Shown here: positions 44,741-64,000 of the stretch, in pieces | How positions within the stretch are numbered: position 1 is the first letter of the stretch | How the letters are laid out: every line of letters begins with the position of its first letter | NCBI GenBank assembly: GCA_964484505.1 | Contig: CAZAFB010000004.1 | Span: forward strand, 23,265 to 87,264 | DNA from: an uncultured Bdellovibrionales bacterium | GTDB taxonomy: Bacteria > Patescibacteriota > Minisyncoccia > Moranbacterales > GWC2-37-73 | Reading direction: 5' to 3' | Length of the DNA: 64,000 bases | Position numbers and translations under genes: made by a program | Notes under the pieces: model-generated | What the model was told of the DNA's origin: nothing | Databases searched by the model: none | Seen by the model: the letters and a program-made list of their open reading frames with translations, nothing else

Positions 44741-44765
44741 GCGGCCTCGAGAGAGGCCGCTTTTT
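44741..44765 (+). terminator. rho-independent terminator (GCGGCCTC-gaga-GAGGCCGC plus T5)
   Basis: Perfect 8-bp stem; twin of the hairpin at 45584. Confidence 0.8.
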
Positions 44766-44766
44766 C

Positions 44767-45555
44767 TTGTCCGAATTGATAGATGGGTTTAGACTTGGGG
44801 GAGATGGGTATAGGTATGATGAGTGGAGGAATTTTGAAGTAGTTATTGAGAAGGCAAGGATTGCCCGTGAGAGAGCCAGGCAAAAGGCCTTGGACCATTT
44901 TGTTGGCGCCAACAAAATGGTTGATCTGGGGTCAGGAAGCAAGCGGGAGGTGAATGATATTATGCTCACCCGTTACGCTTGCTATCTCATTGCCCAAAAT
45001 GGAGATCCGCGAAAGAATGAAATTGCTTTCGCTATGACCTATTTTGCAGTGCAGACCAGAAAGCAAGAAATAGTCGAGCAGCGATTGGCAGAGTGGGAGC
45101 GCGTGCAAGCGCGGGAAAAATTATTGCTTTCAGAAAAAGAACTTTCGGGAGTTTTGTTTGAGCGCGGGGTTGATAGTCAGGGATTCGCTCGCATTCGCAG
45201 CAAAGGCGATGCGGCATTATTTGGTGGTTATACCACACAAGATATGAAAAACCGTTTGGGTGTGCCGGACAAAAGACCATTAGCTGATTTCTTGCCATCG
45301 GTGACGATTAAAGCCAAAGACTTGGCAAATGAAATTACCAATCATAATGTCAAAACCAACAAGGCACTTCAGGGAGAAGTCATCATCACGGGTGAACATG
45401 TGAAAAACAATCGCAATATGCGTGAAATGTTGGGCAAGAGCGGAATTGAACCGGAAAACTTACCACCAGAAGAAGATGTAAAAAAGCTTGGGAGAAAATT
45501 GAAATCAGAGGATAGAAAATTACCAAGGAATGCGAGCAAAATAAAACAAAGTTAA
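44767..45555 (+). CDS. DinD-like DNA-damage-inducible / phage-associated protein, apparently lacking the usual N-terminal region
   Basis: WRNF, DHFVGANKMVDLGSGSKRE, LTRYACYLIAQNGDPRK, TYFAVQTRKQE, FGGYTTQD resemble E. coli DinD; only a TTG start sits directly after the terminator. Confidence 0.5.
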   Translation: MSELIDGFRLGGDGYRYDEWRNFEVVIEKARIARERARQKALDHFVGANKMVDLGSGSKREVNDIMLTRYACYLIAQNGDPRKNEIAFAMTYFAVQTRKQEIVEQRLAEWERVQAREKLLLSEKELSGVLFERGVDSQGFARIRSKGDAALFGGYTTQDMKNRLGVPDKRPLADFLPSVTIKAKDLANEITNHNVKTNKALQGEVIITGEHVKNNRNMREMLGKSGIEPENLPPEEDVKKLGRKLKSEDRKLPRNASKIKQS

Positions 45556-45583
45556 CTTCAAATTGGAATATAAGTGAGTTACG

Positions 45584-45609
45584 GCAGCCTCGAGAGAGGC
45601 TGCTTTTTT
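45584..45609 (+). terminator. rho-independent terminator (GCAGCCTC-gaga-GAGGCTGC plus T6)
   Basis: Differs from the 44741 hairpin by one compensatory base-pair change. Confidence 0.8.
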
Positions 45610-45865
45610 AGTGAAAGAAAATGGGGTATTGACCGGTATATAATAATGGGTATATATTCATAATATATTCCACATTAAGAATTTATATGTAGTCCGCCAT
45701 TTTTCCGAATCAATTTCTGTGAAGGATAAAGTTTGATTCGCGGGTTTCGACTTCGTCTTGCACTTGGTTAACATGGAATCAATGCGAGAAAAATCGGCGG
45801 ACGCTCAAATTTGTAGCAAAATTTTTTAAAAATTTTGACAAATTTGGCGAAGGGAGGTGATATTT

Positions 45866-49981: not shown

Positions 49982-50050
49982 GGCGATATATCCGCGGGCA
50001 GCTGGCCAGCACTTATTGACGCAGCTGCCCGGTAGATATAAAATACTCAT

Positions 50051-50398
50051 ATGAAAAATACTATGAAAAATTCAACAAAAAAATCAGGAGAAAAAACTTT
50101 TGGCTTCAATGAAGTGATGTCATTGCTTGAATCCATGAATGATGGGATTAAAGTAATTTCCGAACAATATGGGGGAGTTGTTGCGCGTTTGGATAAAATT
50201 GATGATAGATTGGATAGAATGGAGACAAGAATGGATGGGGTAGAAACTAGATTGGACAACGTGGAAGTTAAGCTGGATAAGCTGCAAGATGACATGGTGG
50301 AAGTCAAATATGAACTCAAAAATAAAGTTGACAGGGATGAGTTCAAAAAACTGGAAAAACGCGTCGTGAAATTGGAACGACTCTCTTACTCGCACTGA
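50051..50398 (+). CDS. coiled-coil hypothetical protein with internal RLD/VET repeats
   Basis: RLDKIDDRLDRMETRMDGVETRLDNVEVKLDKL. Confidence 0.45.
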   Translation: MKNTMKNSTKKSGEKTFGFNEVMSLLESMNDGIKVISEQYGGVVARLDKIDDRLDRMETRMDGVETRLDNVEVKLDKLQDDMVEVKYELKNKVDRDEFKKLEKRVVKLERLSYSH

Positions 50399-50413
50399 TC
50401 TGAAAATATCTCA

Positions 50414-50445
50414 AACACCGACTGAGTAGTCGGTGTTTGTTTAAG
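50414..50445 (+). terminator. rho-independent terminator
   Basis: AACACCGACT-gagt-AGTCGGTGTT perfect 10-bp stem plus T-rich tract. Confidence 0.75.
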
Positions 50446-50468
50446 ACAAAAAATAATCGTTAAATCTG

Positions 50469-52094
50469 ATGCCAAAAACATATTTGCAAAAACATTTTAA
50501 TTTTGCAGACTTTCGTCCCGGTCAGAGGGAAATTGTGGAAGCTATCGTCGCCGGAAAAGATGTGGTGGCTCTGATGCCGACAGGAGGCGGCAAATCTTTG
50601 TGCTACCAACTTCCTGCGATCATGAGCGGGAAACTTTCAATCGTGATTTCACCGCTCATTGCGCTCATGAAAGATCAGGTGGATGCCCTCAATGCGCGCG
50701 GAATCGGTGCGACATATGTGAACAGCACGCTTACAAACGAAGAAAGTGCCAGACGGATGGATGATATTCGCAGTGGTAAAACAAAAATTTTGTATATAGC
50801 TCCCGAGCGTTTTGGTAGTAATGAATTCAGAAAAGAATTTTCTCAAATGGATGTGCATATGGTGGCTGTCGATGAAGCGCATTGTGTGTCGCAATGGGGA
50901 CATGACTTTCGTCCGGATTATTTGAAAATAAAACAATATATAAATCTGTTGAAAAATCGCCCGCTTGTTGCTGCGTTTACCGCTACGGCGACGCCGGAAG
51001 TTAAAGATGATATTATCGAACGTTTGGGGTTAGAAAATCCGCAAGTTTTTATCAGAGGATTTGACCGTCCCAATCTCAAGTTTTTCGTGCAAAAAGATCT
51101 CAAACCCAGAGAAAGACAAGCTGAACTGCTACGCGTTATCAAATCTTTGGAAGGAAGCGGCGTGGTATATGTGCTAACCAGAAAGTATACCGAGGAAATC
51201 GCTGCCGCACTGAACCAGTCCGGAATTTCTGCAGTGGCATATCATGCAGGAATCGACGGAGAAAAACGCAACAAAATCCAAAATGATTTTATGGAAAATC
51301 GCTACAAAGTTATTGTGGCGACGATTGCGTTCGGTATGGGTGTGGACAAAGCCGACATCCGCTATGTCATCCATTCGGGCATGCCGGCAAGTCTGGAAGG
51401 GTATTATCAAGAAGCGGGAAGAGCTGGGCGCGACGGAGAAACGGCATATTGTATTTTGCTGCACAGTAAACGCGACAACGCAACCCACAACTTTCTGATC
51501 CAATCGACGCGTCGAGACATGCTTGCGCAAGGAAAGAGTTGGGATGAAGCGACAAAGATTATCGACATAAAATATGACAGACTGGATAAAATAAAGGAAT
51601 ATGTGCATGGCGGGAGATGCCGGCGCAAAATTATTCTCAAATATTTTGATGATCCGGCGCACAAAACAAGTAAAGAAAACTGCAGTGGCTGCGATGTGTG
51701 CATGGGATGGAAAAGAAAAAATGAAGGAGAGTCTGGCGATTATGAAAACAAAAGCAGAAGGCGCAGGGAAGGATTGAGCGGAACTGTTTTGGAAACAGCC
51801 GGATATTATCAGAAAGGATATGACGTTGCCAAAATTGCCAAAATTCGCGGCTTGGGACTCTCGACTATTTTCGGGCACCTGATCGATTGGTATGAAAATG
51901 GCGGCGATTTCGATATTGGGGCGCATTTTTCGCCGCAAGAAGAAAAAATTATTTTAGCCGCAATTCAAAAAGCAGACAATGCAAAATTTCTCAGCTCCAT
52001 TAAGCAGCAGTTGCCCGAGAATATCGGTTACGAAAAAATAAGGATGGTGGTGGCAAAAAAGAAAAGAGATATTAAACAAAAAATTGTCAATTAA
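50469..52094 (+). CDS. recQ: RecQ-family ATP-dependent DNA helicase
   Basis: FRPGQREIVEA, PTGGGKSLCYQLPA, DEAH, Zn-binding Cys cluster. Confidence 0.85.
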   Translation: MPKTYLQKHFNFADFRPGQREIVEAIVAGKDVVALMPTGGGKSLCYQLPAIMSGKLSIVISPLIALMKDQVDALNARGIGATYVNSTLTNEESARRMDDIRSGKTKILYIAPERFGSNEFRKEFSQMDVHMVAVDEAHCVSQWGHDFRPDYLKIKQYINLLKNRPLVAAFTATATPEVKDDIIERLGLENPQVFIRGFDRPNLKFFVQKDLKPRERQAELLRVIKSLEGSGVVYVLTRKYTEEIAAALNQSGISAVAYHAGIDGEKRNKIQNDFMENRYKVIVATIAFGMGVDKADIRYVIHSGMPASLEGYYQEAGRAGRDGETAYCILLHSKRDNATHNFLIQSTRRDMLAQGKSWDEATKIIDIKYDRLDKIKEYVHGGRCRRKIILKYFDDPAHKTSKENCSGCDVCMGWKRKNEGESGDYENKSRRRREGLSGTVLETAGYYQKGYDVAKIAKIRGLGLSTIFGHLIDWYENGGDFDIGAHFSPQEEKIILAAIQKADNAKFLSSIKQQLPENIGYEKIRMVVAKKKRDIKQKIVN

Positions 52095-52211
52095 AAAACA
52101 TACCTCAAATCGACGGCCGTGAGTTCGTGTATAGTTTTGGTTATGATGTGATGGTTTGGACCTTGTGATGAACATAAAGGGAAAATTAATAATATGGATG
52201 AGGCGCAGGCA

Positions 52212-52240
52212 TTGACTAAACGGGGCGGGTTTGCTAAATT
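52212..52240 (+). promoter_or_regulatory. sigma70 promoter module copy 1 (TTGACT, 17-nt spacer, TAAATT, then conserved leader GCCGTGTTGGTTCTTATACAAT)
   Basis: About 50 bp nearly identical to 53721-53786. Confidence 0.6.
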
Positions 52241-52284
52241 GCCGTGTTGGTTCTTATACAATTTGACAAGGAGGAATGCAAAAA

Positions 52285-52878
52285 ATGAGCGAGAAAATAG
52301 TCCAGCTTGAAGGGGAAATCAAGGGCCTCCACTACAATCCGGTAATGGAACGTCATAGTTTCTCGAATTCCAGGACGGAGGAATTCTACAAACAGTTCTG
52401 GGAAATTCACGTGAAACAGGTCATCGAATTCAGTAGGCAGATGGCTGTGAAATACGGCGCCGATCTGGAAGTTGTGTGGCTTGCGGCTATTCTGCATGAT
52501 ATCGCACGTCTTGATGATTATGAACCTCATGATGTAATTGGATCGGAAACAGCCTACATGTTGCTGATTGAAAAAGGTTTCAAATATTCTTTGGCTGAGA
52601 AAGCCAAGGTTGCCATCTTGAGACATCGTTGCAAAGAATATGTTCCTGAAACACTGGAACAGAAAATCATTGCCACGGCTGATGCGATGGCTCACTTCAT
52701 CCCGCCGTTCTATTTCTGGATAGCCAAATATTCAAACAAAAGCTTTGAGGAAGTTCTGGAAAAGAACAAGGGGAAAATCGAGCGCGATTACAATGATAAG
52801 ATCTTTTTCGAAGATGAGAGGGTGTTGGTTTCGGGGCAGTATGAAATGTTGAAAAGCTGGTTTGGATATAAAATTTAG
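52285..52878 (+). CDS. HD-domain phosphohydrolase
   Basis: H...AILHDIARLDD; SD AAGGAGG. Start taken at the second ATG for correct SD spacing. Confidence 0.6.
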   Translation: MSEKIVQLEGEIKGLHYNPVMERHSFSNSRTEEFYKQFWEIHVKQVIEFSRQMAVKYGADLEVVWLAAILHDIARLDDYEPHDVIGSETAYMLLIEKGFKYSLAEKAKVAILRHRCKEYVPETLEQKIIATADAMAHFIPPFYFWIAKYSNKSFEEVLEKNKGKIERDYNDKIFFEDERVLVSGQYEMLKSWFGYKI

Positions 52879-52899
52879 CAAAGAAAAAGGAGACAAATC

Positions 52900-53532
52900 A
52901 TGCCAGATACTCCGAATGTGTTAGCTGCCAGAAATGCTGTTTTTGAAGTGGGAAAGGCGCGTATGAATTTGCGTATAGCCCTTGCCAATCTTTCGCTTGG
53001 AGAACTTGCCGAAGTTATCACTGAAGTGCATGCTTACAGTCCCGTCGTTATCAATATCGATTCCCAAATCTATAAAAAGAAAGGCGGGCTGGCTATTTTA
53101 AAGCCATGCGAAGATCTTAACCTGGGTATCGTTCTATGGTCAGCTCCGAAATTAACAATGATGGCTTCTTGGGAAACAGTTCCTGATTCTATTTGCGTGG
53201 ACTTCATGAGAAACAAAGTTTTTTTTGAGGTCTTTTCCGGAGGCAAAGGCAAGAGTATGGATAAGAAATTCGCCTGCATAGCAGAAGCTTGCAAAAGAAA
53301 CGGAATAAGGAACATATTTCTTTTAAATCCGGGAAATATGTGTCAGTTTTTTCGAAATACGGGAAACTGTGATATTGAAGTCACGGGAGTGGATGATTTT
53401 TTGGATATACTGAGCATGCATGTTGACCTGGGAGATCTTAAGCTTTCCTTTCTTGATTTTCAAAAAAGTACAGCATTGGAATTCCATGAATATATGCGCA
53501 AATGTGGGATACGAGACGATCTGGGGGTGTAA
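52900..53532 (+). CDS. hypothetical protein (210 aa), SD-led
   Basis: AAAGGAGACAAATC-ATG; no family recognised. Confidence 0.45.
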   Translation: MPDTPNVLAARNAVFEVGKARMNLRIALANLSLGELAEVITEVHAYSPVVINIDSQIYKKKGGLAILKPCEDLNLGIVLWSAPKLTMMASWETVPDSICVDFMRNKVFFEVFSGGKGKSMDKKFACIAEACKRNGIRNIFLLNPGNMCQFFRNTGNCDIEVTGVDDFLDILSMHVDLGDLKLSFLDFQKSTALEFHEYMRKCGIRDDLGV

Positions 53533-53576
53533 AGCTTAATTTATCCTTTTGATAATGTCTGGACTTACTTGAACAA

Positions 53577-53611
53577 CGACCTGTTGCTTAAATAGCACGG
53601 GTCGTTTTTTT
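53577..53611 (+). terminator. intrinsic terminator module copy 1 (part of a ~75-bp repeated unit)
   Basis: CGACCT / GGGTCG stem, 16-nt loop, T7; downstream GTTTGGATTTTTGGCTGGCGAAAAATGGCTTGAATAA repeated at 55240. Confidence 0.7.
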
Positions 53612-53723
53612 GTTTGGATTTTTGGCTGGCGAAAAATGGCTTGAATAAAGGGAAGAATATGGTTATATTTAACTCGCGATCCCGTTAAATGTGGTCCATT
53701 AAGTAGTTAAATTTAACAGGGCA

Positions 53724-53752
53724 TTGACTAAGTGCGGCAAGTTTGCTAAATT
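53724..53752 (+). promoter_or_regulatory. sigma70 promoter module copy 2
   Basis: TTGACT, 17-nt spacer, TAAATT and identical leader. Confidence 0.6.
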
Positions 53753-53817
53753 GCCGTGTTGGTTCTTATACAATTAAACATATTGATGCTGTGGATTTTG
53801 AGAGGAGGTGATAAAAG

Positions 53818-55179
53818 GTGATCAAGGGCATAAAAGCCGTAGTCGAAAGGGTTGTTTTAGATGGCCCGCATGGTCCATTTGTCATTACAACCTCAAAGGC
53901 GTTCACTGGCTCCGTGACGTTCTCCCTTGAACGTAACGTGTGGCAGGAACATGGGCACCCTGAACCTGGAGAAGTAGTTTTTCTTTACGAGCTTCGGGAA
54001 AAAAGACAGGGATGGAGAGCAAAAAAAGGACGGTACTGGAAACCGTCTGACGAGCAAACAGCACAGGAGGAAGAAATCATGGAAAGACTGATGTTTTCAC
54101 TCAAGAGACTTAGAAGCAAGTGGTTCCCCACGGAAGAAGACATGAAATGGAAAAGCTGGGTAGACTTCAAGTCCAGAGAAACAAGGGACTTGGTTAATCT
54201 TCTTTCCCAGAAGGTAAACGACATTTTCAAGAAACGAGCGCTATTTCTGCTGTTTGTACCTTCGGCAACAGTTAATCCTCTCTATTGGAAAGGAGACATC
54301 GGTAAGTTCTATCACGGGTTGGACATTCTCGACAAACTGACTCCTGATCTGCTGAGCTATGCAGCTGAGCTTGTCATGCAGTTTGTCACCGCTCTGAGTC
54401 CGGTGCACTGCGATCGGCCGAGGAACGTTGCCGAAGGCGGTGGTGGTATCATGATATATATGTCGATACCTGACAAATATCATGACGCGCTGTCGTTCTA
54501 CAACCGCTGTATACTGAAACTGTTGGCAAAGCTCCCTGCTGAGCAAGCAGAAAAGATCTTTCCGCTGTATTCCCTCAATGACATCTCAACATTCTGGAAT
54601 ATGGATACCGCCTCAGGATACAACCCTTTTCAGAACCTCATGTACTCCGATGACATCAACGAGAAATGGAAGAGGTTGGCTGACGGGAAGATGCGAGATA
54701 TAGTGCGCGCGGAAATTGAAGGAAAAGTAAAACCCAGAGAAGAGCATGAAGACGCTCTGCGCTGCTACTCCAGTTTTATTCAGAGGCAGTTCTATGGGTC
54801 CCATTACCCGAAGAAGTTGCTTGTCGAACAGGTGCAATTCCTCGTGGAAAACCTTCAACCGAATACACACCTCATCAACTGCTTCAATGTCATCAATTTC
54901 TTCGACCTTTTGTATGCAGATTCCCAAAAGGAACTTCGGCACAAAATCGCCAGATATACCGTCATGGAAAACATGGAGAAATACGGAAGGTTTCATGTTT
55001 ACGACACGGGAACGAGGCGGGCTGCAGAACAGATGCTCGAAGAGTTCGCTGATGATCAGGAACTTGCTGAAAAAGTTCGCGAACTTATAGCAGAAGGCGA
55101 AAGAAGACAGGCTGAAAACGCAGCTCATTATGCAGAAGAGAAAGAAGCGGAGAAAAGCATCCTTGCTGCAATGCAGTAA
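53818..55179 (+). CDS. hypothetical protein (453 aa), GTG start, SD-led, elevated GC
   Basis: GAGGAGGTGA SD; no family recognised; local GC visibly higher than the surroundings. Confidence 0.5.
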   Translation: MIKGIKAVVERVVLDGPHGPFVITTSKAFTGSVTFSLERNVWQEHGHPEPGEVVFLYELREKRQGWRAKKGRYWKPSDEQTAQEEEIMERLMFSLKRLRSKWFPTEEDMKWKSWVDFKSRETRDLVNLLSQKVNDIFKKRALFLLFVPSATVNPLYWKGDIGKFYHGLDILDKLTPDLLSYAAELVMQFVTALSPVHCDRPRNVAEGGGGIMIYMSIPDKYHDALSFYNRCILKLLAKLPAEQAEKIFPLYSLNDISTFWNMDTASGYNPFQNLMYSDDINEKWKRLADGKMRDIVRAEIEGKVKPREEHEDALRCYSSFIQRQFYGSHYPKKLLVEQVQFLVENLQPNTHLINCFNVINFFDLLYADSQKELRHKIARYTVMENMEKYGRFHVYDTGTRRAAEQMLEEFADDQELAEKVRELIAEGERRQAENAAHYAEEKEAEKSILAAMQ

Positions 55180-55204
55180 GGCGTGAAATCTCAAGCAGCA
55201 AGAG

Positions 55205-55239
55205 CGACCCGTTGCTTAAATAGCGTGGGTCGTTTTTTT
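55205..55239 (+). terminator. intrinsic terminator module copy 2
   Basis: CGACCC / GGGTCG perfect stem plus T7; same flanking sequence as copy 1. Confidence 0.75.
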
Positions 55240-55302
55240 GTTTGGATTTTTGGCTGGCGAAAAATGGCTTGAATAATGGGAAAATAGGTGTCGGGGCGAC
55301 TC

Positions 55303-55330
55303 TTGACATATTTTTTTATTCGTGTAAAAT
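55303..55330 (+). promoter_or_regulatory. sigma70 promoter for tuf (TTGACA, 16-nt spacer, TAAAAT)
   Basis: Direct reading of the sequence. Confidence 0.55.
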
Positions 55331-55484
55331 GGCTTATGTATCTTAATTTCCTGCAAAGGAATTTTTGAATTTGCGAAAAAAAGCAGATTCGAATATAATA
55401 AAAAGAAGCTGTTTTTGTAATCAATTATCTTAAATGTTCGCAAGTCGCAGACAAAAGGTTTGTGCGGCAGGCGAAAAAACAACT

Positions 55485-56678
55485 ATGGCAGCAGAACAAT
55501 TCGTACGCAGCAAACCACACGTCAATGTGGGAACCATCGGACATGTTGACCACGGAAAGACCACTCTTACCGCGGCTATTTTGCATGGTCTGAGTCTCAA
55601 AGGTTTGGCCAAGGAAAAGAATGTCAATGAAATCGACAACGCACCGGAAGAAAGAGAGCGCGGAATCACCATTGCTACTTCCCACTGCGAATACGAATCA
55701 GACACTCGTCACTATGCACACGTAGACTGTCCAGGTCATGCTGACTATATCAAAAACATGATCACTGGTGCTGCTCAGATGGATGGTGCTATCCTCGTGG
55801 TTAGCGCAACTGACGGTCCTATGCCTCAGACTCGCGAGCACATCTTGCTTGCAAAGCAGGTCGGTGTTCCTTCAATCGTTGTTTTCATCAACAAAGTTGA
55901 CATGGTTGATGATCCTGAACTTATCGACTTGGTTGAAGCTGAAGTTCGCGAACTGCTTTCCAAATATGAATTCGACGGTGACAATGCCAAGGTTGTTCGC
56001 GGATCTGCCGTGAAAGCTTTGGAAGCTGGCAGCGCTGATGATGAAAGCGTAAAGTGTATCTATGAACTTATCGCAGGGTTGGATGAACAAATTCCTGAAC
56101 CTGTTCGTGAAGTTGACAAGCCGTTTTTGATGCCTATTGAAGATATTTTCTCAATCGAAGGTCGCGGAACCGTGGTTACTGGACGCATTGAACGCGGAAT
56201 AATCAACATCAACGAAGAGGTGGAAATCGTGGGACTTAAACCTACCACCAAAACCGTAGTTACCGGAATTGAAATGTTCAACAAGTCTCTTGACAAAGGA
56301 CAAGCTGGTGACAACGCAGGACTTTTGCTTCGCGGTGTTAAGAAAGAAGATGTTGAACGCGGTCAGGTTCTTGCTAAACCGGGTTCAATCACTCCTCATA
56401 CTGAATTTGAAGGGCAGATCTATATTTTGACCAAAGAGGAAGGTGGACGTCACACCCCATTCTTCAAAGGATACAAACCACAGTTCTACATCCGTACAAC
56501 CGATGTTACCGGTGAGGTTTTTCTTCCGGAAGGAACTGAAATGGTTATGCCTGGAGACACCATTAATTTGAACATCAAATTGATTGCTCCGGTTGCTATG
56601 GAAGATGGAATGCGCTTCGCTATCCGCGAAGGAGGACGTACAGTTGGTGCAGGTGCCGTAACTAAGATTATCAAATAG
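55485..56678 (+). CDS. tuf: elongation factor Tu
   Basis: [26 protein letters not shown]. Start set at [16 protein letters not shown] rather than the track's 55434. Confidence 0.95.
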
Positions 56679-56775
56679 TTTCAGTTTACTATGCAAGCAT
56701 GCTCCAAGCGTGCTTGCTTGTGTTCACTGAATCACTAGATAAGTTAATTAAATTTCATTTATAATTTAGACAGCG

Positions 56776-57105
56776 ATGGCAGCTAAAAAACCAGAAACAA
56801 CATCGACGAGAATCAGGATTAAGATCAAAGCATATGACAATAAAGTCATTGATCAATCCGCAAGAAAGATCGTTGAAACTGCGGAACGCAGCGGAGCGAA
56901 AATAACCGGTCCGGTGCCGCTTCCTACGGAAATTCATAAAGTGACGGTGAACAAGTCAACTTTTGTGCATAAGGATGCTCGTGAGCAATATGAGATGCGC
57001 GTACACAAGCGTTTGATCGATATCACTGATCCTAGCGCAAAGACGATTGAAAACCTGACTAGCTTGGATTTGCCAGCAGGTGTTGACGTGGAAATCAAGA
57101 TGTGA
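56776..57105 (+). CDS. rpsJ: 30S ribosomal protein S10
   Basis: IRIKIKAYD...GPVPLPT signature. Confidence 0.9.
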
Positions 57106-57283
57106 TAATATTAATCACGGATCGACGCGAATTAAGTCCCGAATATTCTCGAATGGCATGTATGGGTTTATTAGAGATTGTTAGAGATAAATTTGTGTAG
57201 ATTAGAGATTTATATCACTGGTTAAAGTCCTGTCGCTTGCGAGTAACGGGATACTCAACTAGCCAAACGCGAAATTTTTCGCG

Positions 57284-57309
57284 GGTCTGGCTGCAGGGCC
57301 AGATTTTTT
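57284..57309 (+). terminator. intrinsic terminator between rpsJ and rplC
   Basis: TCTGGC-tgcagg-GCCAGA plus T6; preceded by the palindrome CGCGAAATTTTTCGCG (57268-57283). Confidence 0.6.
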
Positions 57310-57370
57310 ATACCCTACGAATTACGAATCAGTTACGAATTTACAAATTACGAATAATTGAAATAAGACG

Positions 57371-57934
57371 ATGAGCAAATTTATTTTAGGTAAGAAAATA
57401 GGAATGACTACCATCTATGATGGGGAGAAAGGAGCTTTGAATGTGACTCTCATTTCATGCGAGCCCAACAAAGTATCTTGCGTCCGTAGCACTGAAAAAG
57501 ATGGTTATGCGGCGATGCAGTTGGAGCTTTCTAAGACTAAAAATAAAACTCATCGCAAAGAGTTCCGTATTGAGGAATCTGAAGCGAAGAATGCTGGTGA
57601 TTTGGTAACGATTGAAGCGTTTGCGATTGGAGATAAAGTAAAGGTTTCAGGAATAACCAAAGCTAAAGGTTTCCAAGGTGTTGTGAAAAGACATGGTTTC
57701 AAGGGAGCTCCCAAAACACATGGTCACAAACATGACCTTCGTGCTCCTGGTTCGATCGGAGCCCAGCAGCCTCAGCATGTTATCAAAGGAAAGAGAATGG
57801 CCGGAAGAATGGGAGGAACTCGCAGCTCAGTAAAGAATCTCAAGATTGCATATTTGGATATTGAAAAGAATATTATCGGAGTGCAAGGTGCGGTTCCGGG
57901 AGTAGCAGGGAGAATCGTAGAGATCTGTGGATAG
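57371..57934 (+). CDS. rplC: 50S ribosomal protein L3
   Basis: L3 family sequence. Confidence 0.9.
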   Translation: MSKFILGKKIGMTTIYDGEKGALNVTLISCEPNKVSCVRSTEKDGYAAMQLELSKTKNKTHRKEFRIEESEAKNAGDLVTIEAFAIGDKVKVSGITKAKGFQGVVKRHGFKGAPKTHGHKHDLRAPGSIGAQQPQHVIKGKRMAGRMGGTRSSVKNLKIAYLDIEKNIIGVQGAVPGVAGRIVEICG

Positions 57935-57937
57935 AAA

Positions 57938-58040
57938 TCGCGAATCGACACGAATATAGTCTCGAATAATCGCGAATGAAATGCGTCATTAGAGATTATT
58001 AGTGATAAATTAGAGTAAATTAGAGATTTATACCATCATT
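57938..58040 (+). repeat. intergenic phased-repeat element: CGAAT x4 (57941, 57951, 57963, 57973) then TTAG(A/T)G(A/T)T x4 (57989, 57999, 58010, 58020), ending TTTATACCATCATT-ATG
   Basis: Unit spacing 10-12 bp; same architecture recurs in at least 10 other spacers. Confidence 0.85.
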
Positions 58041-58670
58041 ATGGCTAAGGTAACCGTCTACAATACAACAGGAAAGAAAGTGGAGGATATGGAATTGTCC
58101 GATAATGTTTTTGGACAAAAATCCAACAACGATCTGCTTCATCAAGTATATGTTGCTATTTCAGCAAATCGTCGCCAAGTGCTTGCGCACACCAAAGGAG
58201 TTGGCGAGCGCGCCGGATCGGGCAAAAAGCCTTGGAGACAGAAAGGAACTGGCAATGCCCGCGTAGGACAAAAAAGAAATCCGATTTGGCGTGGAGGTGG
58301 AATTTCCATGGGACCGACAAGTGACAGGAATTTCAGCAAGGATGTAAACAAAAAAATGCGTCAAAAGGCTGTCATGGTTGCGCTTAGTGAAAAAGTGCGC
58401 AGTGGTAATCTGATTGTGGTAGATAAGCTGATACTGAATGAGAAGAAGACCAAGGAATTTGCGCAGGTTCTCAAGAATCTTAAAGTTTCTGGAAAAGTTT
58501 TGGTTGCTTTCGAAGAAACTGAAAGAGAACTCATGAAGGCATCACGTAATATTGAAACGGTAAAGAATATCAGTACGAAAAATTTGAATGTTTTCGATAT
58601 GCTTAATTCCAAGAATATCTTGGTAAGCCTTGCGTCAGTAAAGTTATTAGAAGAGAAGTTTGCTAAATAA
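58041..58670 (+). CDS. rplD: 50S ribosomal protein L4
   Basis: L4 family sequence. Confidence 0.9.
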   Translation: MAKVTVYNTTGKKVEDMELSDNVFGQKSNNDLLHQVYVAISANRRQVLAHTKGVGERAGSGKKPWRQKGTGNARVGQKRNPIWRGGGISMGPTSDRNFSKDVNKKMRQKAVMVALSEKVRSGNLIVVDKLILNEKKTKEFAQVLKNLKVSGKVLVAFEETERELMKASRNIETVKNISTKNLNVFDMLNSKNILVSLASVKLLEEKFAK

Positions 58671-58702
58671 AGATTTCCTGATAATTTCAAGATATAATAG
58701 TT

Positions 58703-59050
58703 ATGGCTCCAAAAGTTGAAAAATCCAAAAAGAAGAAAGATGCCGCGGAGGCTTTTCAGAGCGCTGAGGTTGCGTATCGTGTTCTTGTTGAACCGTGGAT
58801 AACCGAAAAAACTCATGCTGGATCGGCAATAGGCAAATATTCTTTCAAGGTAACTTCCAAAGCTACCAAGAAAGAAGTTGCCGAGGCTATTGCAGGAATG
58901 TATGGAATTACCGTTACGGGAGTAAATATGATTACGGTAAAGAAGAAAAAGAAAAGCTATGGCAGATATGAAGGAGCTAAGGCTGGATATAAAAAGGCTA
59001 CAGTGACTCTGAAGGAAGGAGAATCAATAACATTTTTTGAAGGAGTGTAG
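58703..59050 (+). CDS. rplW: 50S ribosomal protein L23
   Basis: L23 family sequence. Confidence 0.85.
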   Translation: MAPKVEKSKKKKDAAEAFQSAEVAYRVLVEPWITEKTHAGSAIGKYSFKVTSKATKKEVAEAIAGMYGITVTGVNMITVKKKKKSYGRYEGAKAGYKKATVTLKEGESITFFEGV

Positions 59051-59158
59051 GGATTTAAATCGCGAATCGACACGAATTAGTCTCGAATAATCGCGAATAG
59101 AATGCAAAATTAGAGATTATTAGAGATAAATTAGCGTAAATTAGAGATTTATACCATT
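59051..59158 (+). repeat. intergenic phased-repeat element
   Basis: AATCGCGAATCGACACGAATTAGTCTCGAATAATCGCGAAT then ATTAGAGATTATTAGAGATAAATTAGCGTAAATTAGAGATTTATACC. Confidence 0.85.
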
Positions 59159-59992
59159 ATGGCGATTAAAGTATACAAACGAAATACTGCTGGACGAAGG
59201 AACATGTCCATTGTAAAAGCTGATGAGCTTACGGATAAGAAGCCTGAGAAAGCTTTGCTTTCCAAGCTCACCAAAAAATCCGGTCGCAGCAACGGAAAGA
59301 TTTCCGTGCGTCATCATGGAGGTGGGCATAAGCGTCGTTATCGTGCGGTTGATTTTCGCCAGGACAAATTTGATATACCGGGCAAGATTGAGGCTATCGA
59401 AAGAGATCCGAATCGCAGCTCGTTGATTGCTTTGGTTGTTTACCGCGATGGAGAGAAAAGATATGTTTTGGCGTCGGCAGGAATGAAAGCTGGCGTGGAA
59501 ATAATTGCTGGACCGAATGTACCAATCAAAGAAGGAAACAGGACTGAGCTTAAGAATATTCCTGTAGGAACGATTGTTTCCAATGTCGAAGTTACCTTTG
59601 GCAAGGGTGGACAGATCGTACGTAGTGCCGGAAGCGGAGCAATGCTTATGGCTGTTGATGAAAAGATGGCACAGCTAAAAATGCCATCCGGAGAAATTAG
59701 GCTAGTGAAATGCATTTGTTATGCTACAATTGGACAGGTGAGCAATTTTGAACATAACGCAGAAAAGCTCGGAAAGGCTGGTAGAAACAGATGGAAAGGT
59801 GTACGCCCGGGAGTGAGGGGAAGTGCGATGAATCCGGTTGATCATCCACATGGAGGAGGAGAAGGACGTCAGCCGATTGGTTTGAAATATCCAAAAACTC
59901 CTTGGGGCAAACCTGCCCTTGGCAAGAAAACCCGCAAGAAGTCGAAATATAGTGATAAATTTATTGTTAAGAGGAGAACTAAAAAGAAATAA
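59159..59992 (+). CDS. rplB: 50S ribosomal protein L2
   Basis: L2 family sequence. Confidence 0.95.
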   Translation: MAIKVYKRNTAGRRNMSIVKADELTDKKPEKALLSKLTKKSGRSNGKISVRHHGGGHKRRYRAVDFRQDKFDIPGKIEAIERDPNRSSLIALVVYRDGEKRYVLASAGMKAGVEIIAGPNVPIKEGNRTELKNIPVGTIVSNVEVTFGKGGQIVRSAGSGAMLMAVDEKMAQLKMPSGEIRLVKCICYATIGQVSNFEHNAEKLGKAGRNRWKGVRPGVRGSAMNPVDHPHGGGEGRQPIGLKYPKTPWGKPALGKKTRKKSKYSDKFIVKRRTKKK

Positions 59993-60085
59993 CAGAATTA
60001 ACATAGAAGAAAACAGAATAGCACAGATACACAGAATTTTTCTGTGTCGTTCCGTAAATTTCTGTGTAGTTCTGTGATAGTAATT
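59992..60085 (+). repeat. dyad repeat array: ACAGAAT direct repeats followed by TTCTGTG inverted copies, with a perfect 8-bp palindrome ACACAGAA-ttt-TTCTGTGT at 60029-60047
   Basis: Direct reading; differs from the common spacer element. Confidence 0.8.
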
Positions 60086-60430
60086 ATGGCTAGGAGTCTG
60101 AAAAAAGGACCATACGTGGACGAAAGAGTTATCAAGAAGGTTGTTGATAGCAAGCCGGGTGAAAAGACCATCAAAACATGGTCACGCGCCTGTACTATCA
60201 CTCCGGAAATGATCGGCTTTACTTTCGGTGTGCATAATGGGAAAGAATTTATTTCTGTATATGTCACTGAAGAAATGGTCGGTCATCGTTTGGGAGAATT
60301 TTCTCCTACGCGCAAATTCTTGAGACACGGAGGTAAGATGCAGAAAGAAATTGAACAGGCAGCCAAGCAAAAATCTTTGGATGCAGCGAAAGCAGCCAAA
60401 GCTGACACAGGAAAGGGAAAAAAGAAATAA
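60086..60430 (+). CDS. rpsS: 30S ribosomal protein S19 with a Lys/Ala-rich C-terminal extension
   Basis: [12 protein letters not shown]...GHRLGEF signature. Start at 60086, not the track's 60044. Confidence 0.9.
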
Positions 60431-60508
60431 GGATTTAAATCGCGAATCGAATGCAAGAATTAGAGATTATTAGGGATAAATTAGCGTAAATTAGAGATTT
60501 ATACCATT
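60431..60508 (+). repeat. intergenic phased-repeat element (shortened module A)
   Basis: AATCGCGAATCGAATGC then TTAGAGAT-type array. Confidence 0.8.
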
Positions 60509-61084
60509 ATGAAAGTTAACGCAACACTGAAAAATTTGAGAATATCTCCGCGCAAAGTGCGCTTAGTGGCTGATTCTATCAAGGGAATGAATGCTTCTGC
60601 TGCTATTGCTCATGTCCACAAGACAATAAAGCGTTCAAGCGATGACATTGAAAAACTCATCCGCAGCGCGGTGGCTAATGCGGAAAATAATTTTGGTTTG
60701 GATGGTGACAACATGTACATCTCGGATATTCAGGTTGGCGAAGGGCCAAGCATGAAACGTTGGTTGCCCAGAGCTCACGGAAGAGCAACTTCGCTCATTA
60801 AGCGTACCTCGCATGTGTATCTGGAGCTTGATGAAAGGGAAGAAGGTAAAAACCGCAAGTCGTCTGAGCAACTCCAGAAAGAGAAAGAAGAAAGAGCAAA
60901 AGCCAAGGCTGAAGCCATCAAGGAATTGGAAGAGGAAATGAAAGCCGCGGAGGAATCCGAAGATGAAGTGCATGATGAAAAGGAATTGAAAGAGCAGAAA
61001 GTGAAAAAGGAAACTGCAAAGACAGAACAGAAGGGTCAAGACAAAGGATGGAAGGGCAAGATATTTCAGCGCAAATCCGTGTAA
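60509..61084 (+). CDS. rplV: 50S ribosomal protein L22 with an ~80-aa Lys/Glu-rich C-terminal extension
   Basis: L22 core followed by a low-complexity K/E tail. Confidence 0.9.
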   Translation: MKVNATLKNLRISPRKVRLVADSIKGMNASAAIAHVHKTIKRSSDDIEKLIRSAVANAENNFGLDGDNMYISDIQVGEGPSMKRWLPRAHGRATSLIKRTSHVYLELDEREEGKNRKSSEQLQKEKEERAKAKAEAIKELEEEMKAAEESEDEVHDEKELKEQKVKKETAKTEQKGQDKGWKGKIFQRKSV

Positions 61085-61181
61085 ATAATTCACGAATCGA
61101 CACGAATTTGTTCTCGAATAATCACGAATTTATTAGAGATAATTAGCGATAAATTAGTGTAAATTAGCGATTTATAAAATT
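61085..61181 (+). repeat. intergenic phased-repeat element
   Basis: CACGAATCGACACGAAT...CTCGAATAATCACGAAT then TTAGAGAT/TTAGCGAT/TTAGTGTA/TTAGCGAT. Confidence 0.8.
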
Positions 61182-61835
61182 ATGGGACATAAGGTAAATC
61201 CAACAGGACTCAGAATTGGAATCACGACGACTTGGAAGTCGCGCTGGTTTTCCGATAAGGATTATGCAAAAAAGTTGCGCGAAGACACGCTAATCCGCCA
61301 AGCTATAGCGAAGAAGTGGAAAAATGCAGCGATTGCTGATGTGGAAGTGGAACGTAGTGCCAATACGATTAAATTGATCATCAAGACATCCCGTCCAGGC
61401 GTACTCATAGGTCGCGGAGGAACGGGAATTGAAGATATTTCCGCTTTCGTCAAGAAGAATTTTTTCGCCAATCGAAAAGTTGATCTGAAAATTGAAGCGC
61501 AGGAAGTGAAACAATTCGAAGAAAATGCCTCGTTGGTAGCCCAAAATGTTGCCGAGCAGTTGGAAAAGCGTATGCCTTTCCGCAGAGTGCTCAAATCAAC
61601 CCTGGACCAAGTGGAAAAAAATAGGAATGTGAAAGGTGTGAAGATTGAGGTTTCTGGACGTTTGGGAGGAGCGGAAATGTCTCGAAGAGAATGGTTATCT
61701 CGCGGCACGGTGCCTCTGCACACATTGCGTGCCGACATTGATTTCTCGAAAGCGACCGCGTTTACCACATATGGAGCTATCGGAGTGAAAGTTTGGATAT
61801 ATAAAGGAGAAGTATTTGATGATAAAAATCTCTAA
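61182..61835 (+). CDS. rpsC: 30S ribosomal protein S3
   Basis: MGHKVNPTGLRIG signature. Confidence 0.95.
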   Translation: MGHKVNPTGLRIGITTTWKSRWFSDKDYAKKLREDTLIRQAIAKKWKNAAIADVEVERSANTIKLIIKTSRPGVLIGRGGTGIEDISAFVKKNFFANRKVDLKIEAQEVKQFEENASLVAQNVAEQLEKRMPFRRVLKSTLDQVEKNRNVKGVKIEVSGRLGGAEMSRREWLSRGTVPLHTLRADIDFSKATAFTTYGAIGVKVWIYKGEVFDDKNL

Positions 61836-61922
61836 TCATCTCGAATTGAATCACGAATGATCACAAATATATTAGAGATAATTAGCGATAAATTAGTGTA
61901 GATTAGTGATTTATACAATAAT
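61836..61922 (+). repeat. intergenic phased-repeat element
   Basis: CGAAT-type then TTAGNGAT-type arrays. Confidence 0.8.
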
Positions 61923-62336
61923 ATGTTGATGCCAAAGAAAGTAAAACATAGAAAGATCCATCGCGGTGGAGCTATCCGCGGGGTTGCAACCAAGGGTACC
62001 GAGGTAAGTTTTGGAAGCTTCGGTCTCAAAGCAACTTCCTCCGGGCTTATTTCCGCGAGGCAGATCGAAGCCGCTAGACGCGCGATGACTAGATATATCA
62101 AGCGTGGTGGCAAAATCTGGATCCGTATTTTCCCAGACAAGCCGATGACTAAGAAGGGTGATGATGTGCCTATGGGTAAAGGAAAAGGAAGTGTGGATCA
62201 TTATGTGGCCAAAACTAAGCAAGGAAGAATGCTTTTTGAAATGGATGGTGTGGCTGAAGACGTAGCGCGTGAAGCGATGAGATTGGCAGCATATAAATTG
62301 AGCGTAAAGACTAAGTTTGTGGTAAGAGAGAAATAG
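61923..62336 (+). CDS. rplP: 50S ribosomal protein L16
   Basis: L16 family sequence. Confidence 0.9.
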
Positions 62337-62445
62337 CTGACATAAATCGCGAATCGGCACTAATAAAGTCTCGAATAGTCGCGAATAAAATTCATTAGAG
62401 ATTATTAGTGATAAATTAGTGTTGATTAGTGATTTATATAATTAT
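62337..62445 (+). repeat. intergenic phased-repeat element
   Basis: AATCGCGAATCGGCAC...CTCGAATAGTCGCGAAT then TTAGAGAT/TTAGTGAT/TTAGTGTT/TTAGTGAT. Confidence 0.8.
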
Positions 62446-62634
62446 ATGAAAGTAGGACAACTTAGAGATATGACAGTGGACGAACTTAAGAAGTTTGTCG
62501 ACGAGCAGAGATCCGGCGCAGTGAAAATGCGTTTTGCGATCGCTTCCCGTCAGGAGAAGGATCACAGGCAATATCGTCGTACTCGCAGGACGATCGCTCG
62601 TGCACTTACCATACTTAAAGAAAAGGATAAATAA
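62446..62634 (+). CDS. rpmC: 50S ribosomal protein L29
   Basis: MKVGQLRDMTVDELKK signature. Start at 62446, not the track's 62419. Confidence 0.85.
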   Translation: MKVGQLRDMTVDELKKFVDEQRSGAVKMRFAIASRQEKDHRQYRRTRRTIARALTILKEKDK

Positions 62635-62635
62635 T

Positions 62636-62866
62636 ATGGAGAAAAAAGTAGCGAAAATGAAGGGGATTGTGGTTAGCGATGCGATGGATAAAACCATTAT
62701 AGTAGCTGTCCAAACTCTTAAAACCCATCCGAAATACTTGAAAAAATATCGCTCGACCAAGAAATACAAGGTTCATGACGAGGATAATAAATTCAAGAAG
62801 GGGGATGCAGTTGAATTCATTCAATGCCGCCCAATTAGCAAGGATAAGAGGTTTAAAATAGCGTAG
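62636..62866 (+). CDS. rpsQ: 30S ribosomal protein S17
   Basis: KGIVVSDAMDKTIIVAV...KYKVHDE signature; starts 1 nt after the rpmC stop. Confidence 0.85.
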   Translation: MEKKVAKMKGIVVSDAMDKTIIVAVQTLKTHPKYLKKYRSTKKYKVHDEDNKFKKGDAVEFIQCRPISKDKRFKIA

Positions 62867-62979
62867 TATAGAAATCGCGAATCGACACGAATAAAGTCTC
62901 GAATAATCGCGAATGGCGCGAGTGAATTTATTAGAGATTATTAGTGATAAATTAGTGTAGATTAGAGATTTAAATCATT
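62867..62979 (+). repeat. intergenic phased-repeat element
   Basis: AATCGCGAATCGACACGAATAAAGTCTCGAATAATCGCGAAT then TTAGAGAT-type array. Confidence 0.85.
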
Positions 62980-63345
62980 ATGATTCAAGCAGAGACAAAA
63001 TTGAAAGTTGCCGATAATTCCGGAGCGAAAGTAATCGAGTGTTTTAAGGTGCTCGGAGGAACACGTAGGAGATATGCATCGATCGGTGATATTATTGTCG
63101 CATCAGTAAAATCAGCCGAACCTCGCGGAATGGTGAAAAAAGGCGATAAAGTGAAAGCGGTGATTGTTCGCCAAGCCAAAGCGCTTCGCAGAAAGGATGG
63201 TTCGCTGATCAGATTTGATGAAAATGCTGCTGTGATTGTGGATGGCAAAGAGCCGAAAGGAACACGTATTTTCGGACCAGTAGCCAGAGAATTGCGTGAA
63301 AAAGGTTTTAATAAGATTGTTTCATTGGCCCCGGAAGTTTTGTAA
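62980..63345 (+). CDS. rplN: 50S ribosomal protein L14
   Basis: [17 protein letters not shown] signature. Confidence 0.95.
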
Positions 63346-63475
63346 GACGCGAATTTTTACGAATTAAGAACGAATTTGCACGAATGTGTAATAAATAGCA
63401 AGTGAATATTTTTTAAGGAAACAACTGAATACGGGTTCGTACATTCGTACCAATTCGTAATTCGTAGAGAAAGTC
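63346..63475 (+). repeat. variant intergenic repeat element (ACGAAT direct copies then ATTCGTA inverted copies)
   Basis: GACGCGAATTTTTACGAATTAAGAACGAATTTGCACGAAT ... GTTCGTACATTCGTACCAATTCGTAATTCGTAG. Confidence 0.75.
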
Positions 63476-63781
63476 ATGAGGATTAAAAAAGGAGATCAGG
63501 TACAAATAATCGCCGGAAAGGACAAGGGCAAAAAAGGCAAAGTGCTGCGCACCCTGCCTAGCGTTGAGAAGATAGTCGTGGAAGGTTTGAATATGATGAA
63601 AAAGCACGTTCGCCCGAGGCGTGAGCGCGAACAAGGGCAGAGAGTGGAGATCGCCGCTCCGATGCCTGTTTCCAACGTGATGTTGATTTGCCCAAGTTGC
63701 GGCAAAATGACCCGTGTTGGTTATGCGGTGACCAAGCAGCGCAAATCCCGCGTGTGCAAGAAATGCAATAAGGAATTTTAA
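63476..63781 (+). CDS. rplX: 50S ribosomal protein L24 with a C-terminal CxxC...CxxC Zn-ribbon extension
   Basis: KKGDQVQIIAGKDKGK KOW motif; tail CPSCGKMTRVGYAVTKQRKSRVCKKC. Confidence 0.9.
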   Translation: MRIKKGDQVQIIAGKDKGKKGKVLRTLPSVEKIVVEGLNMMKKHVRPRREREQGQRVEIAAPMPVSNVMLICPSCGKMTRVGYAVTKQRKSRVCKKCNKEF

Positions 63782-63798
63782 TTCGATTTGATCGTTTA

Positions 63799-64000
63799 AT
63801 GAGTATGAACGTAGTTTCAACAAAAGAGAAATATGCCAAGTCAGTTGTGAGTCACATGATGGAGACTTTCAAATATGACAGCGTGATGTCTGTTCCGAAA
63901 ATCGAGAAAGTTGTTGTTAATGTAGGAATTGGCAAGATCCTCAAGGAAGGCGATCGTATCGACGAAATCGTTGAGGGACTTCGCGCCATCACCGGACAAC
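63799..64000 (+). CDS. rplE: 50S ribosomal protein L5 (3'-truncated by the window end)
   Basis: MSMNVVSTKEKYAKSVVSHMMETFKYDSVMSVPKIEKVVVNVGIG. Confidence 0.85.
   Translation, partial: MSMNVVSTKEKYAKSVVSHMMETFKYDSVMSVPKIEKVVVNVGIGKILKEGDRIDEIVEGLRAITGQ

Follow-up and report, generated by a model that had tools for sequence, protein, structure and literature searches.

Free-standing homing endonuclease genes are known from phage T4 (seg and mob), among others, and I-Ssp6803I is a homing enzyme of the PD-(D/E)XK type. The ends of Tn7 carry several subterminal transposase-binding repeats, and its TnsA protein is a PD-(D/E)XK nuclease as well. Integron attC sites and the Vibrio cholerae repeats are imperfect palindromes of ~60-140 bp with core sites RYYYAAC ... 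GTTRRRY, and the cyanobacterial short tandemly repeated repetitive (STRR) heptamers are contiguous direct repeats that have neither a paired inverted module nor a nested gene. The intervening sequences of 23S rRNA lie within the rRNA and are associated with a four-helix-bundle protein, and those that bear an open reading frame (ORF) are excised by RNase III. REPINs, which go with REP-associated tyrosine transposases (RAYTs), are short multi-copy extragenic elements in which two inverted arms enclose a spacer, with one gene flanked by the arms (PMC3116915, PMC3337134). TIGR-Tas arrays have 36-nt units, edge and loop repeats, two variable 8-9-nt spacers and a Nop-domain Tas gene (PMC12045711). 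Here we compare with these systems a ~100-bp element that fills the spacers of the S10/spc ribosomal protein (r-protein) cluster in a 64-kb stretch of contig CAZAFB010000004.1 (the window).

An earlier note, made from the letters of the window, had described these spacers as pairs of phased repeat modules and suggested a promoter or leaderless start for each gene. The "two-module" spacer is a single quasi-palindromic DNA element of ~100 bp, termed family A, and cassettes of this kind undergo exchange or turnover at the level of DNA. The reading that we favour, with a probability of about 0.5, is that the spacers represent an inverted-repeat cassette of the GxxExxY nuclease in copies that lack the ORF. 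The cassette would spread at the DNA level, be co-transcribed with the operon and offer its ATG-proximal arm as a start context lacking a Shine-Dalgarno (SD) sequence. The inverted relation of the modules, the families that substitute for one another and the nuclease gene flanked by arms in relatives had all escaped the earlier note.

The spacer element and its copies

The window has a G+C content of 41.8%, and every real gene in it lies on the plus strand; gene identities are from Pfam. The same sequence is held by the Joint Genome Institute (JGI) metagenome contig Ga0248168_1000127 at 23337-87336, and locus L001 is identical to it over 15,960 bp (L-numbers denote comparison loci or contigs, P-numbers nuclease proteins). 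The S10-spc gene order, with no L30 gene between S5 and L15, fits the Patescibacteria (candidate phyla radiation, CPR), and the closest reference genome, a Candidatus Moraniibacteriota metagenome-assembled genome (MAG), is only 55% identical in L4.

The 11 family A copies of the window (alignment A1) have a mean column identity of 70%, and certain pairs are 88-96% identical. The unit consensus is CNCKAAT (K = G or T), with four units per arm spanning three helical turns and the arms mutually inverted. Read as its reverse complement, the ATTAG module matches the CGAAT module over ~45 nt, spacers and termini (TATAAATC...GATTTATA) included, which makes the TTTATA box the outer terminus of an inverted repeat. 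The exception to this complementarity is the G of the 5' arm, which faces A in 52 of 69 cases, T in 11 and C in only 5. The C, A, A and T positions of the unit are invariant in both arms of A1, and the N and K positions are free. CGAAT units are spaced 10-12-10 or, occasionally, 10-11-10, and ATTAG units 10-11-10; the centre between the arms varies in length from 0 to 13 nt. ATTAG[ACT]G occurs 43 times on the plus strand of the window and 11 times on the minus strand.

The two arms differ in constraint. The ATG-proximal (3') arm is 91.7% identical with 27 invariant columns and is truncated in no copy, whereas the stop-proximal (5') arm is 81.4% identical with 7 invariant columns and is shortened in several copies. 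The 5' arm begins 0-12 nt past the upstream stop codon, and 5-9 nt lie between the end of the 3' arm and the ATG; copies terminate in GATTTATAnnATT-ATG without GGAGG, the exception being the copy at 57106-57215. The family A copies and the related solo module are as follows.

57935-58040, plus strand: rplC/rplD; 5' arm 57935-57977 (four CNCGAAT units), centre 57978-57987, 3' arm 57988-58031 (four ATTAGNG units, end GATTTATA), then 9 nt to the ATG at 58041
59051-59158, plus strand: rplW/rplB; complete, 4+4 units
60431-60508, plus strand: rpsS/rplV; 5' arm truncated to about 1.5 units
61085-61181, plus strand: rplV/rpsC
61836-61922, plus strand: rpsC/rplP; 5' arm of 3 units
62337-62445, plus strand: rplP/rpmC; family C in its place in strains L002 and L004
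62867-62979, plus strand: rpsQ/rplN; 13-nt centre
57106-57215, plus strand: directly 3' of rpsJ; no ATG after it
41784-41882, plus strand: rpsL/rpsG; variant with inner 3' units ATTCGGG/ATTCGTG
12020-12115, plus strand: Peptidase_S11/mraY; empty counterpart of the GxxExxY-filled spacer in syntenic L115
18650-18754, plus strand: upstream of an unknown 628-aa gene
44670-44720, plus strand: solo A-type 5' module after fusA; terminator hairpin next, no 3' module

Beyond the window, four further family A copies lie in the spc operon (rplE/rpsN, rpsN/rpsH, rpsH/rplF and rplR/rpsE).

The observation in the earlier note is confirmed, with some corrections. Direct reading and A1 both place two-module spacers at rplC/rplD, rplW/rplB, rpsS/rplV, rplV/rpsC, rpsC/rplP, rplP/rpmC, rpsQ/rplN and rpsL/rpsG, although two spacers within the stated range belong to different families, rplB/rpsS to family B and rplN/rplX to family C. 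The 5' arm is reduced to ~1.5 units before rplV and to 3 units before rplP. The TTTATA-type end and the missing SD were read correctly, though the lack of SD is general among the core genes of this genome. The expected periodicity is seen in the window with a motif-unbiased detector of 5-mers recurring at least three times at 9-12 bp, which finds 36 arrays against 0-6 in 20 Markov-1 shuffles. Family A also occurs away from the r-protein genes (12020-12115 and 18650-18754) and in related genomes, where the unit sequences differ and the 10-11-10 spacing is kept. The suggestion of a lineage-specific element agrees with 80 loci retrieved via L4, from Patescibacteria or not, none of which has an array of at least four units at 9-12 bp. 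The 10-11-bp phasing is kept across genomes, and family C with a spacing of 8-10-7 substitutes at one site. Since the copies are homologous, the phasing seen in one of them adds no evidence independent of the others. Helical phasing is genuine in family A but does not extend to the element class as a whole. A protein array on one face of the DNA, as the earlier note had proposed, is plausible from the unit layout, and the nested nuclease would be the obvious candidate binder.

Other spacers of the window hold families with different units in the same kind of layout. Family B is spaced 10-10-10 and the 3' arms of family C 8-10-7; the (T)ACGAAT/ATTCGTA units of family C occur in rplN/rplX and several other spacers.

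59993-60085, plus strand: family B, rplB/rpsS; CACAGAA(T) units then TTCTGTG units, 10-10-10
63346-63475, plus strand: family C, rplN/rplX; ACGAAT x4 then ATTCGTA x4, 8-10-7
13217-13338, plus strand: C-like element (TACGAA ... TTCGTA), mraY/pgk
23950-24004, plus strand: family C 3' module (ATTCGTA x4, 8-10-7) before an 88-aa NrdD C-terminal ORF
42351-42390, plus strand: solo C-type 5' module (TACGAA x4) directly 3' to rpsG; in L032, L131 and L132 a GxxExxY gene occupies the orthologous rpsG/fusA spacer
57311-57370, plus strand: TACGAAT x4 module immediately upstream of the rplC ATG

Additional families with the two-module layout have CTCTAAT/ATTAGAG, AACGTT, CACATGA/TCATGTG and GGTAAGG/CCTTACC-like units. 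In L007, L009, L013 and L026, which are more distant Patescibacteria, the spacers of the same operon are 60-130 bp long and consist of unrelated short units and their inverted copies, often with a period of 7-8 bp, and L013 and L026 have true 7-8-bp tandem units. The A-type arms of L105, L113 and L115 keep the 10-11-10 spacing despite other units (CCCCAAT, CGCTAAT, CGCGAAT). Both polarities relative to transcription occur, with L113 and L091 carrying the CTAAT-type arm first. No family A copy was found in viral contigs, and the literature searched contained nothing on these spacers or on any connection of GxxExxY proteins with inverted repeats.

Exchange between strains and a nuclease gene between the arms

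Strains L002 and L004, which share ~99.3% identity with the window, carry family C at rplP/rpmC, where the window and L003 carry family A. The swapped tract begins ~2 codons ahead of the rplP stop and ends precisely at the rpmC ATG; the remaining 7 kb differ by ~10 single-nucleotide polymorphisms (SNPs). At rpsS/rplV, strain L005 has a full 4-unit 5' arm and the window is shorter by 31 nt, which is three units, a whole-unit indel. In a related species (L098/L112; rplB 77% and L4 59% identical to the window), family B lies at rplV/rpsC rather than at rplB/rpsS, family A is at rplB/rpsS and rplN/rplX, and a C-like element is at rplC/rplD; rplX/rplE has a 165-nt element there and none in the window. 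The strain swap and the shuffling of families between species indicate that the cassettes are interchangeable and mobile on short time scales, and are not gene-specific signals.

A metagenome scan for the 3'-arm pattern located family A elements in other organisms, and in one of these (L105) a 129-aa ORF takes the place of the loop between the arms. It belongs to PF13366 PDDEXK_3 / TIGR04256, "GxxExxY protein" (E = 5e-31). A GxxExxY gene also lies in rpsG/fusA of L032, between TACGAAT x3 and ATTCGTA x3. Nine further homologs were picked solely by protein similarity and their contexts then read. With these, all 11 GxxExxY genes (125-131 aa) have a stop-proximal module of forward units on one side and an ATG-proximal module of inverted units on the other; the modules are full in nine and short in L121 and L124. 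The str or spc ribosomal operons host four of the 11 (L032, L131, L132 and L133). The nuclease clades go with the unit types, with the P0001 clade (L105, L113, L115, L117) having A-type units and the P0121 clade (L032, L131, L132, L133) TACGAAT/ATTCGTA units.

Contig L115 is syntenic with the window (ScpA-ScpB-Peptidase_S11-[nuclease]-MraY-PGK; MraY 75% identical). The 3' arm of its filled spacer ends in GATTTAATTCA-ATG and the empty element of the window at 12020-12115 ends in GATTTAATTAA-ATG, with GATTTAATTnA-ATG common to both. The nuclease ORF is therefore present in L115 and absent from the window at an orthologous intergenic site, which is the pattern of a homing-type gene. Within one sample, the empty element of L087 and the joined arms of the filled L105 have 88% column identity and the unusual ATTCGGG unit in common. 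The ScpB/Peptidase_S11 spacer of L115 contains TCTAA/TTAGA units.

The nuclease has a D69...E79xK81 motif in which D69 and K81 are invariant and E79 nearly so among 32 homologs (alignment A2). Its AlphaFold2 (AF2) model is confident, with a predicted local distance difference test (pLDDT) score of 94.2, and the Foldseek neighbours of the model in the PDB are generic PD-(D/E)XK nucleases at a template modelling (TM) score of about 0.5, namely Cas4 SSO0001, lambda exonuclease, MGME1, tRNA-splicing endonuclease and Hjc. The structural match to homing enzymes is weak (I-Bth0305I, E = 0.11), and a sequence search of the PDB with the nuclease gave no relative. A survey of PD-(D/E)XK proteins lists the GxxExxY family as "Unknown" (PMC3424549).

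Two of the ribosomal cassettes have unusual surroundings. On the Giovannonibacteria contig L133 (904-1883), a 79-aa ORF stands between the GxxExxY gene of the spc operon and the 3' arm, and in the preceding spacer, rplE/rpsN, TACGAAT-type units are paired with ATTAGTA units, the same G-versus-A difference as in family A. In L132 (1597-1779), the N-terminus of EF-G is encoded right after the 3' arm of the cassette and then breaks off, and the called fusA starts 135 nt later, which suggests a duplicated or disrupted fusA start beside the nuclease cassette.

Mechanism and rival explanations

In the nuclease-cassette reading, a class of inverted-repeat cassettes would occupy the stop-to-start space of Patescibacteria operons. 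The full form would hold the 125-131-aa GxxExxY PD-(D/E)XK nuclease gene between its arms, read through from the host operon, and the S10/spc copies of the window would be the short form left by loss of the ORF. The nuclease, or another element-specific protein, may bind the phased units as an array, and the cassettes would spread and be swapped through cleavage and repair templated by a further copy, a homing-like gene conversion. Essential operons would tolerate the element because the stem is weakened by mismatches and lacks a U-tract, and an A/U-rich, SD-less start context may come from the ATG-proximal arm, which is the better conserved of the two and lies 5-9 nt from the ATG. A broader form of this idea is at present tentative: that GxxExxY nucleases drive unrecognised homing or mobile cassettes in general, that the arms are a landing pad for a nuclease oligomer, and that ORF-less derivatives have colonised core-operon spacers (S10/spc/str) across Patescibacteria, their ATG-proximal arm being co-opted as an SD-less start.

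Several points weigh against a nuclease-driven origin. No GxxExxY gene or remnant lies in the ~83 kb of this organism's contig that were read, and tblastn of the window at E <= 1e-3 and at E <= 50 gave no decayed copy. We know of no transposase-like activity for this protein family, and inspection of the copies at their boundaries, where the ends abut stop and start codons, shows no evident target-site duplication. In this genome 13 of 15 family A copies are in r-protein spacers (rough P = 2.5e-8), which local spread or a host function could explain, and all 15 have a single orientation. The stronger constraint on the 3' arm would not be predicted for a purely selfish palindrome. The causal direction could also be reversed, with the nuclease favouring pre-existing host hairpin spacers as a safe insertion site.

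One such host function would be a domesticated expression module, in which the ATG-proximal arm, whatever the origin of the element, is a C-free A/U/G leader that serves as an SD-independent start or standby site and the 5' arm pairs with it weakly, so that upstream translation opens the next start and couples the genes across a 100-nt spacer. We regard this as unlikely, although the fixed geometry (0-12 nt from the stop and 5-9 nt to the ATG), the 3' arm with its 27 invariant columns against 7 and its freedom from truncation, and the strong concentration of copies in r-protein operons would all suit it. The mismatches also keep the 3' arm accessible (0.39 unpaired in the native sequence, 0.19 when the K positions are made complementary), and no element is followed by an SD, yet GGAGG sites exist elsewhere in the genome. 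However, the element-free spacers rplD/rplW, rplF/rplR and rplX/rplE likewise have no SD, so its lack is a general property of the core genes of this genome. Sequence-distinct families replace one another at one site and are shuffled between species, copies of reversed polarity exist, solo 5' modules stand at operon ends (44670, 42351), and there is no G.U excess or compensatory change such as selected RNA pairing would leave. An intercistronic RNA hairpin, a long imperfect mRNA stem that would be cut by RNase III or block exonucleases like phage T7 intercistronic sites or REP elements, is distinctly unlikely. Families B and C and several other spacers fold well by minimum free energy (MFE), with z-scores of -3.4 to -5.9 (against shuffled controls, families B and C gave -5.97 and -2.64), the centre is loop-like and of variable length, and a gene in the loop would resemble the ORF-bearing 23S rRNA intervening sequences. 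Family A, on the other hand, folds weakly, with z-scores from +0.8 to -5.9, mostly -0.6 to -3 (most r-protein copies -0.6 to -2.4, the rplV copy +0.8), and its mean MFE of -20.4 kcal/mol would be -38.6 with the G:A (K) positions made complementary. Sense-strand RNA stems under selection normally show G.U enrichment, but the arm mismatches of 25 non-A spacers are G.U-compatible in 34 cases and A.C in 44. Nor is the K base 5' of AAT kept complementary: in the paired units of 20 independent elements it differs 30 times and matches 21 times (18 against 6 in A-type alone), and the predominance of G opposite A over G opposite C in family A points the same way. Rfam gave only a tRNA at gathering threshold and nothing at E <= 1 in 56600-64000. 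With weak folding, no wobble excess and a non-complementary K, the hairpin was rejected as a selected feature.

The same observations, together with the two polarities and the conserved spacing, favour a shared unit consensus that is read by a protein on duplex DNA over one maintained for base pairing, and the phased units are probably binding sites for a protein, possibly the nuclease. The binder could instead be a host transcription factor, alternative sigma factor or nucleoid protein that occupies the units cooperatively and gives each gene its own promoter or leaderless start, much as the earlier note had it. The 10-11-10 spacing that both arms keep for three helical turns, in other genomes too, the invariant C, A, A and T with free N and K, as for a protein site, the strong conservation of the 3' arm adjoining the ATG, and the position of copy 57106-57215 upstream of a non-coding structured stretch ending in a terminator are all compatible with this; we nevertheless consider it improbable, and of the explanations treated here it is the one to which we give least credence. 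A scan of 50000-64000 for sigma-70 promoters and terminators finds canonical promoters only before tuf (TTGACA-16-TAAAAT and TTGCGA-17-TATAAT at 55303 and 55371) and before rpsJ (TAGATA-18-TATAAT at 56736), and a terminator after tuf, but no consistently placed -35/-10 pair (16-18 bp apart) within the element, the only plus-strand hits (57932 and 61846) falling in differing parts of single copies. From rplC to rplX, the genes on the plus strand have no terminator-like site between them. TTTATA, being a terminal inverted repeat, does not have the conserved -10 bases at the distance needed: in GATTTATACCATT-ATG, positions -12 to -7 are ATTTAT (3 of 6, without the A2 base of the box) and TATACC is too near the ATG, which does not fit a -10 box for a start at the ATG. 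The substitution by family C (8-10-7) at one site in a 99.3% identical strain and the nuclease gene flanked by the same arms in relatives also argue against a promoter array, and the per-gene promoter or leaderless start is not supported.

Some use of the 3' arm as the start region of the downstream gene is likely, since it is the better conserved arm, is never truncated and lies in r-protein spacers in 13 of 15 copies. Pairing of GUGAU/GAGAU units with the 16S 3' end in the manner of an SD was considered by eye and dropped, since neither the variable base nor the distance of 12-13 nt to the AUG is compatible with it. GGAGG sites are limited to a few genes and to an element-free island just upstream of the window (L126 1-9237; contig 14083-23319). 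This island has four minus-strand genes, including a PP2C phosphatase and a protein kinase, with strong GGAGG SD sites, ordinary terminators and no unit-array spacers. The minus-strand genes of the contig are confined to it, and it may be horizontally acquired.

Between the family A copy after rpsJ and rplC there is a ~95-nt stretch (57216-57310) with GGATACTCAACTAGCYAA flanked by two hairpins. It ends in a terminator-like stem and T-run (57284-57300), has no Rfam match, and aligns with about 540-650 of L098 with compensatory changes in the stems; seven positions vary between strains. A family A element precedes this stretch in the window and comes after it in L098. The stretch is a candidate ribosomal-protein leader or attenuator.

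Few gene arrays in bacteria are as tightly packed and conserved as the r-protein operons, and here nearly every junction has a rapidly exchanging 100-bp repeat cassette. If the link to the nuclease is true, it would provide the first testable function for the widespread, uncharacterised GxxExxY family and a new kind of selfish element that survives in essential operons by an exact stop-to-start fit. It would also explain a pervasive, undescribed feature of Patescibacteria genomes that is bound to mislead gene calling, operon prediction and promoter or RNA-motif searches. Because they are swapped between near-identical strains, the spacers are also useful as strain markers.

Neighbouring features and comparison with known systems

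The nrdD gene is apparently split. Its 754-aa body (21542-23806) is followed by a 198-nt gap (23807-24004) with small hairpins and the family C 3' module, and a separate 88-aa ORF (24005-24271) matches the C-terminal glycyl-radical end of NrdD (TIGR02487, E = 1.5e-9). A perfect 7-bp tandem, ATTATAG x4, lies after this ORF (24290-24320), and TTAGAAAT-like units lie before a radical-SAM (NrdG-like) gene (24430-24490), with a G+C-rich hairpin between the two. The region after fusA (44721-45640) encodes a DinD-like protein (PRK11525, E = 1e-74; 44917-45555), possibly from a TTG at 44767. It is bracketed by two near-identical terminator hairpins (ggcggcctcgagagaggccgc / ggcagcctcgagagaggctgc) and looks like an inserted gene unit. 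An intergenic segment of ~87 bp is duplicated with 93% identity after two different genes (53577-53663 and 55205-55289); it consists of a terminator hairpin and then ttgtttggatttttggctggcgaaaaatggcttgaataa, and the second copy is just upstream of the tuf promoters. ARAGORN predicts a 96-nt tRNA-Ala(TGC) right after tRNA-Pro (33848-33943) that is not reported by the Rfam tRNA model at gathering threshold, and an insertion or intron may account for the extra length.

Of the closest known systems that could be tested, each has at least one defining feature that the element lacks. A TIGR-Tas array was considered since these are known in Parcubacteria, and rejected because the period here is 10-11 nt, each unit has one variable base, the modules are inverted and no Tas-like gene adjoins. 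The short intergenic unit repeats are like STRR sequences, and L013 and L026 have true 7-8-bp tandems, but STRR sequences have no counterpart of the inverted module and nested gene.

Like attC sites, the elements are conserved imperfect palindromes that separate co-oriented genes, with systematic mismatches that distinguish the two strands. Unlike them, the ends (TATAAATC/GATTTATA) contain no GTTRRRY cores, and the genes on either side are not cassettes but essential r-protein genes that are syntenic; the Pfam-annotated neighbours include no integrase, though not every ORF was scanned. The ORF-bearing 23S rRNA intervening sequences are similar in that inverted arms close around a small ORF inside an essential transcription unit, but here the nested ORF is a GxxExxY nuclease and the element lies outside the rRNA.

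Miniature inverted-repeat transposable elements (MITEs) and transposon ends resemble the element in being ~100 bp long, AT-rich and multi-copy, with imperfect terminal inverted repeats, repeated motifs per end and longer gene-carrying relatives. In contrast to MITEs, there is no recognised transposase, and every insertion fits exactly into the gap from stop to start codon; no target-site duplication is evident by eye. Partners with the same arms exist in relatives, where they encode a predicted 125-aa nuclease, and there is none in 83 kb of this genome.

Free-standing homing endonucleases are similar in the small nuclease gene between conserved genes, its presence or absence at an orthologous site (L115 and the window), the conserved catalytic motif and the localised sequence replacement around the site between close strains. 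They differ in that the GxxExxY gene, which encodes a predicted nuclease, is bracketed by long inverted unit arms that persist in many ORF-less copies.

With REPINs and RAYTs the element has in common the inverted arms (~45 nt each), the short centre (0-13 nt), the extragenic position, the 11 copies in 64 kb and the gene flanked by arms in relatives, and a likeness is also drawn to REPINs as mostly vertically inherited, non-autonomous elements. Unlike in these systems, the flanked gene encodes a PF13366 PDDEXK_3 / TIGR04256 nuclease and not an HUH Y1 (IS200/IS605-like) transposase, each arm consists of four phased units in place of a single ~20-bp palindrome, and the element fills the stop-to-start spacers of operons at a fixed distance from the ATG.

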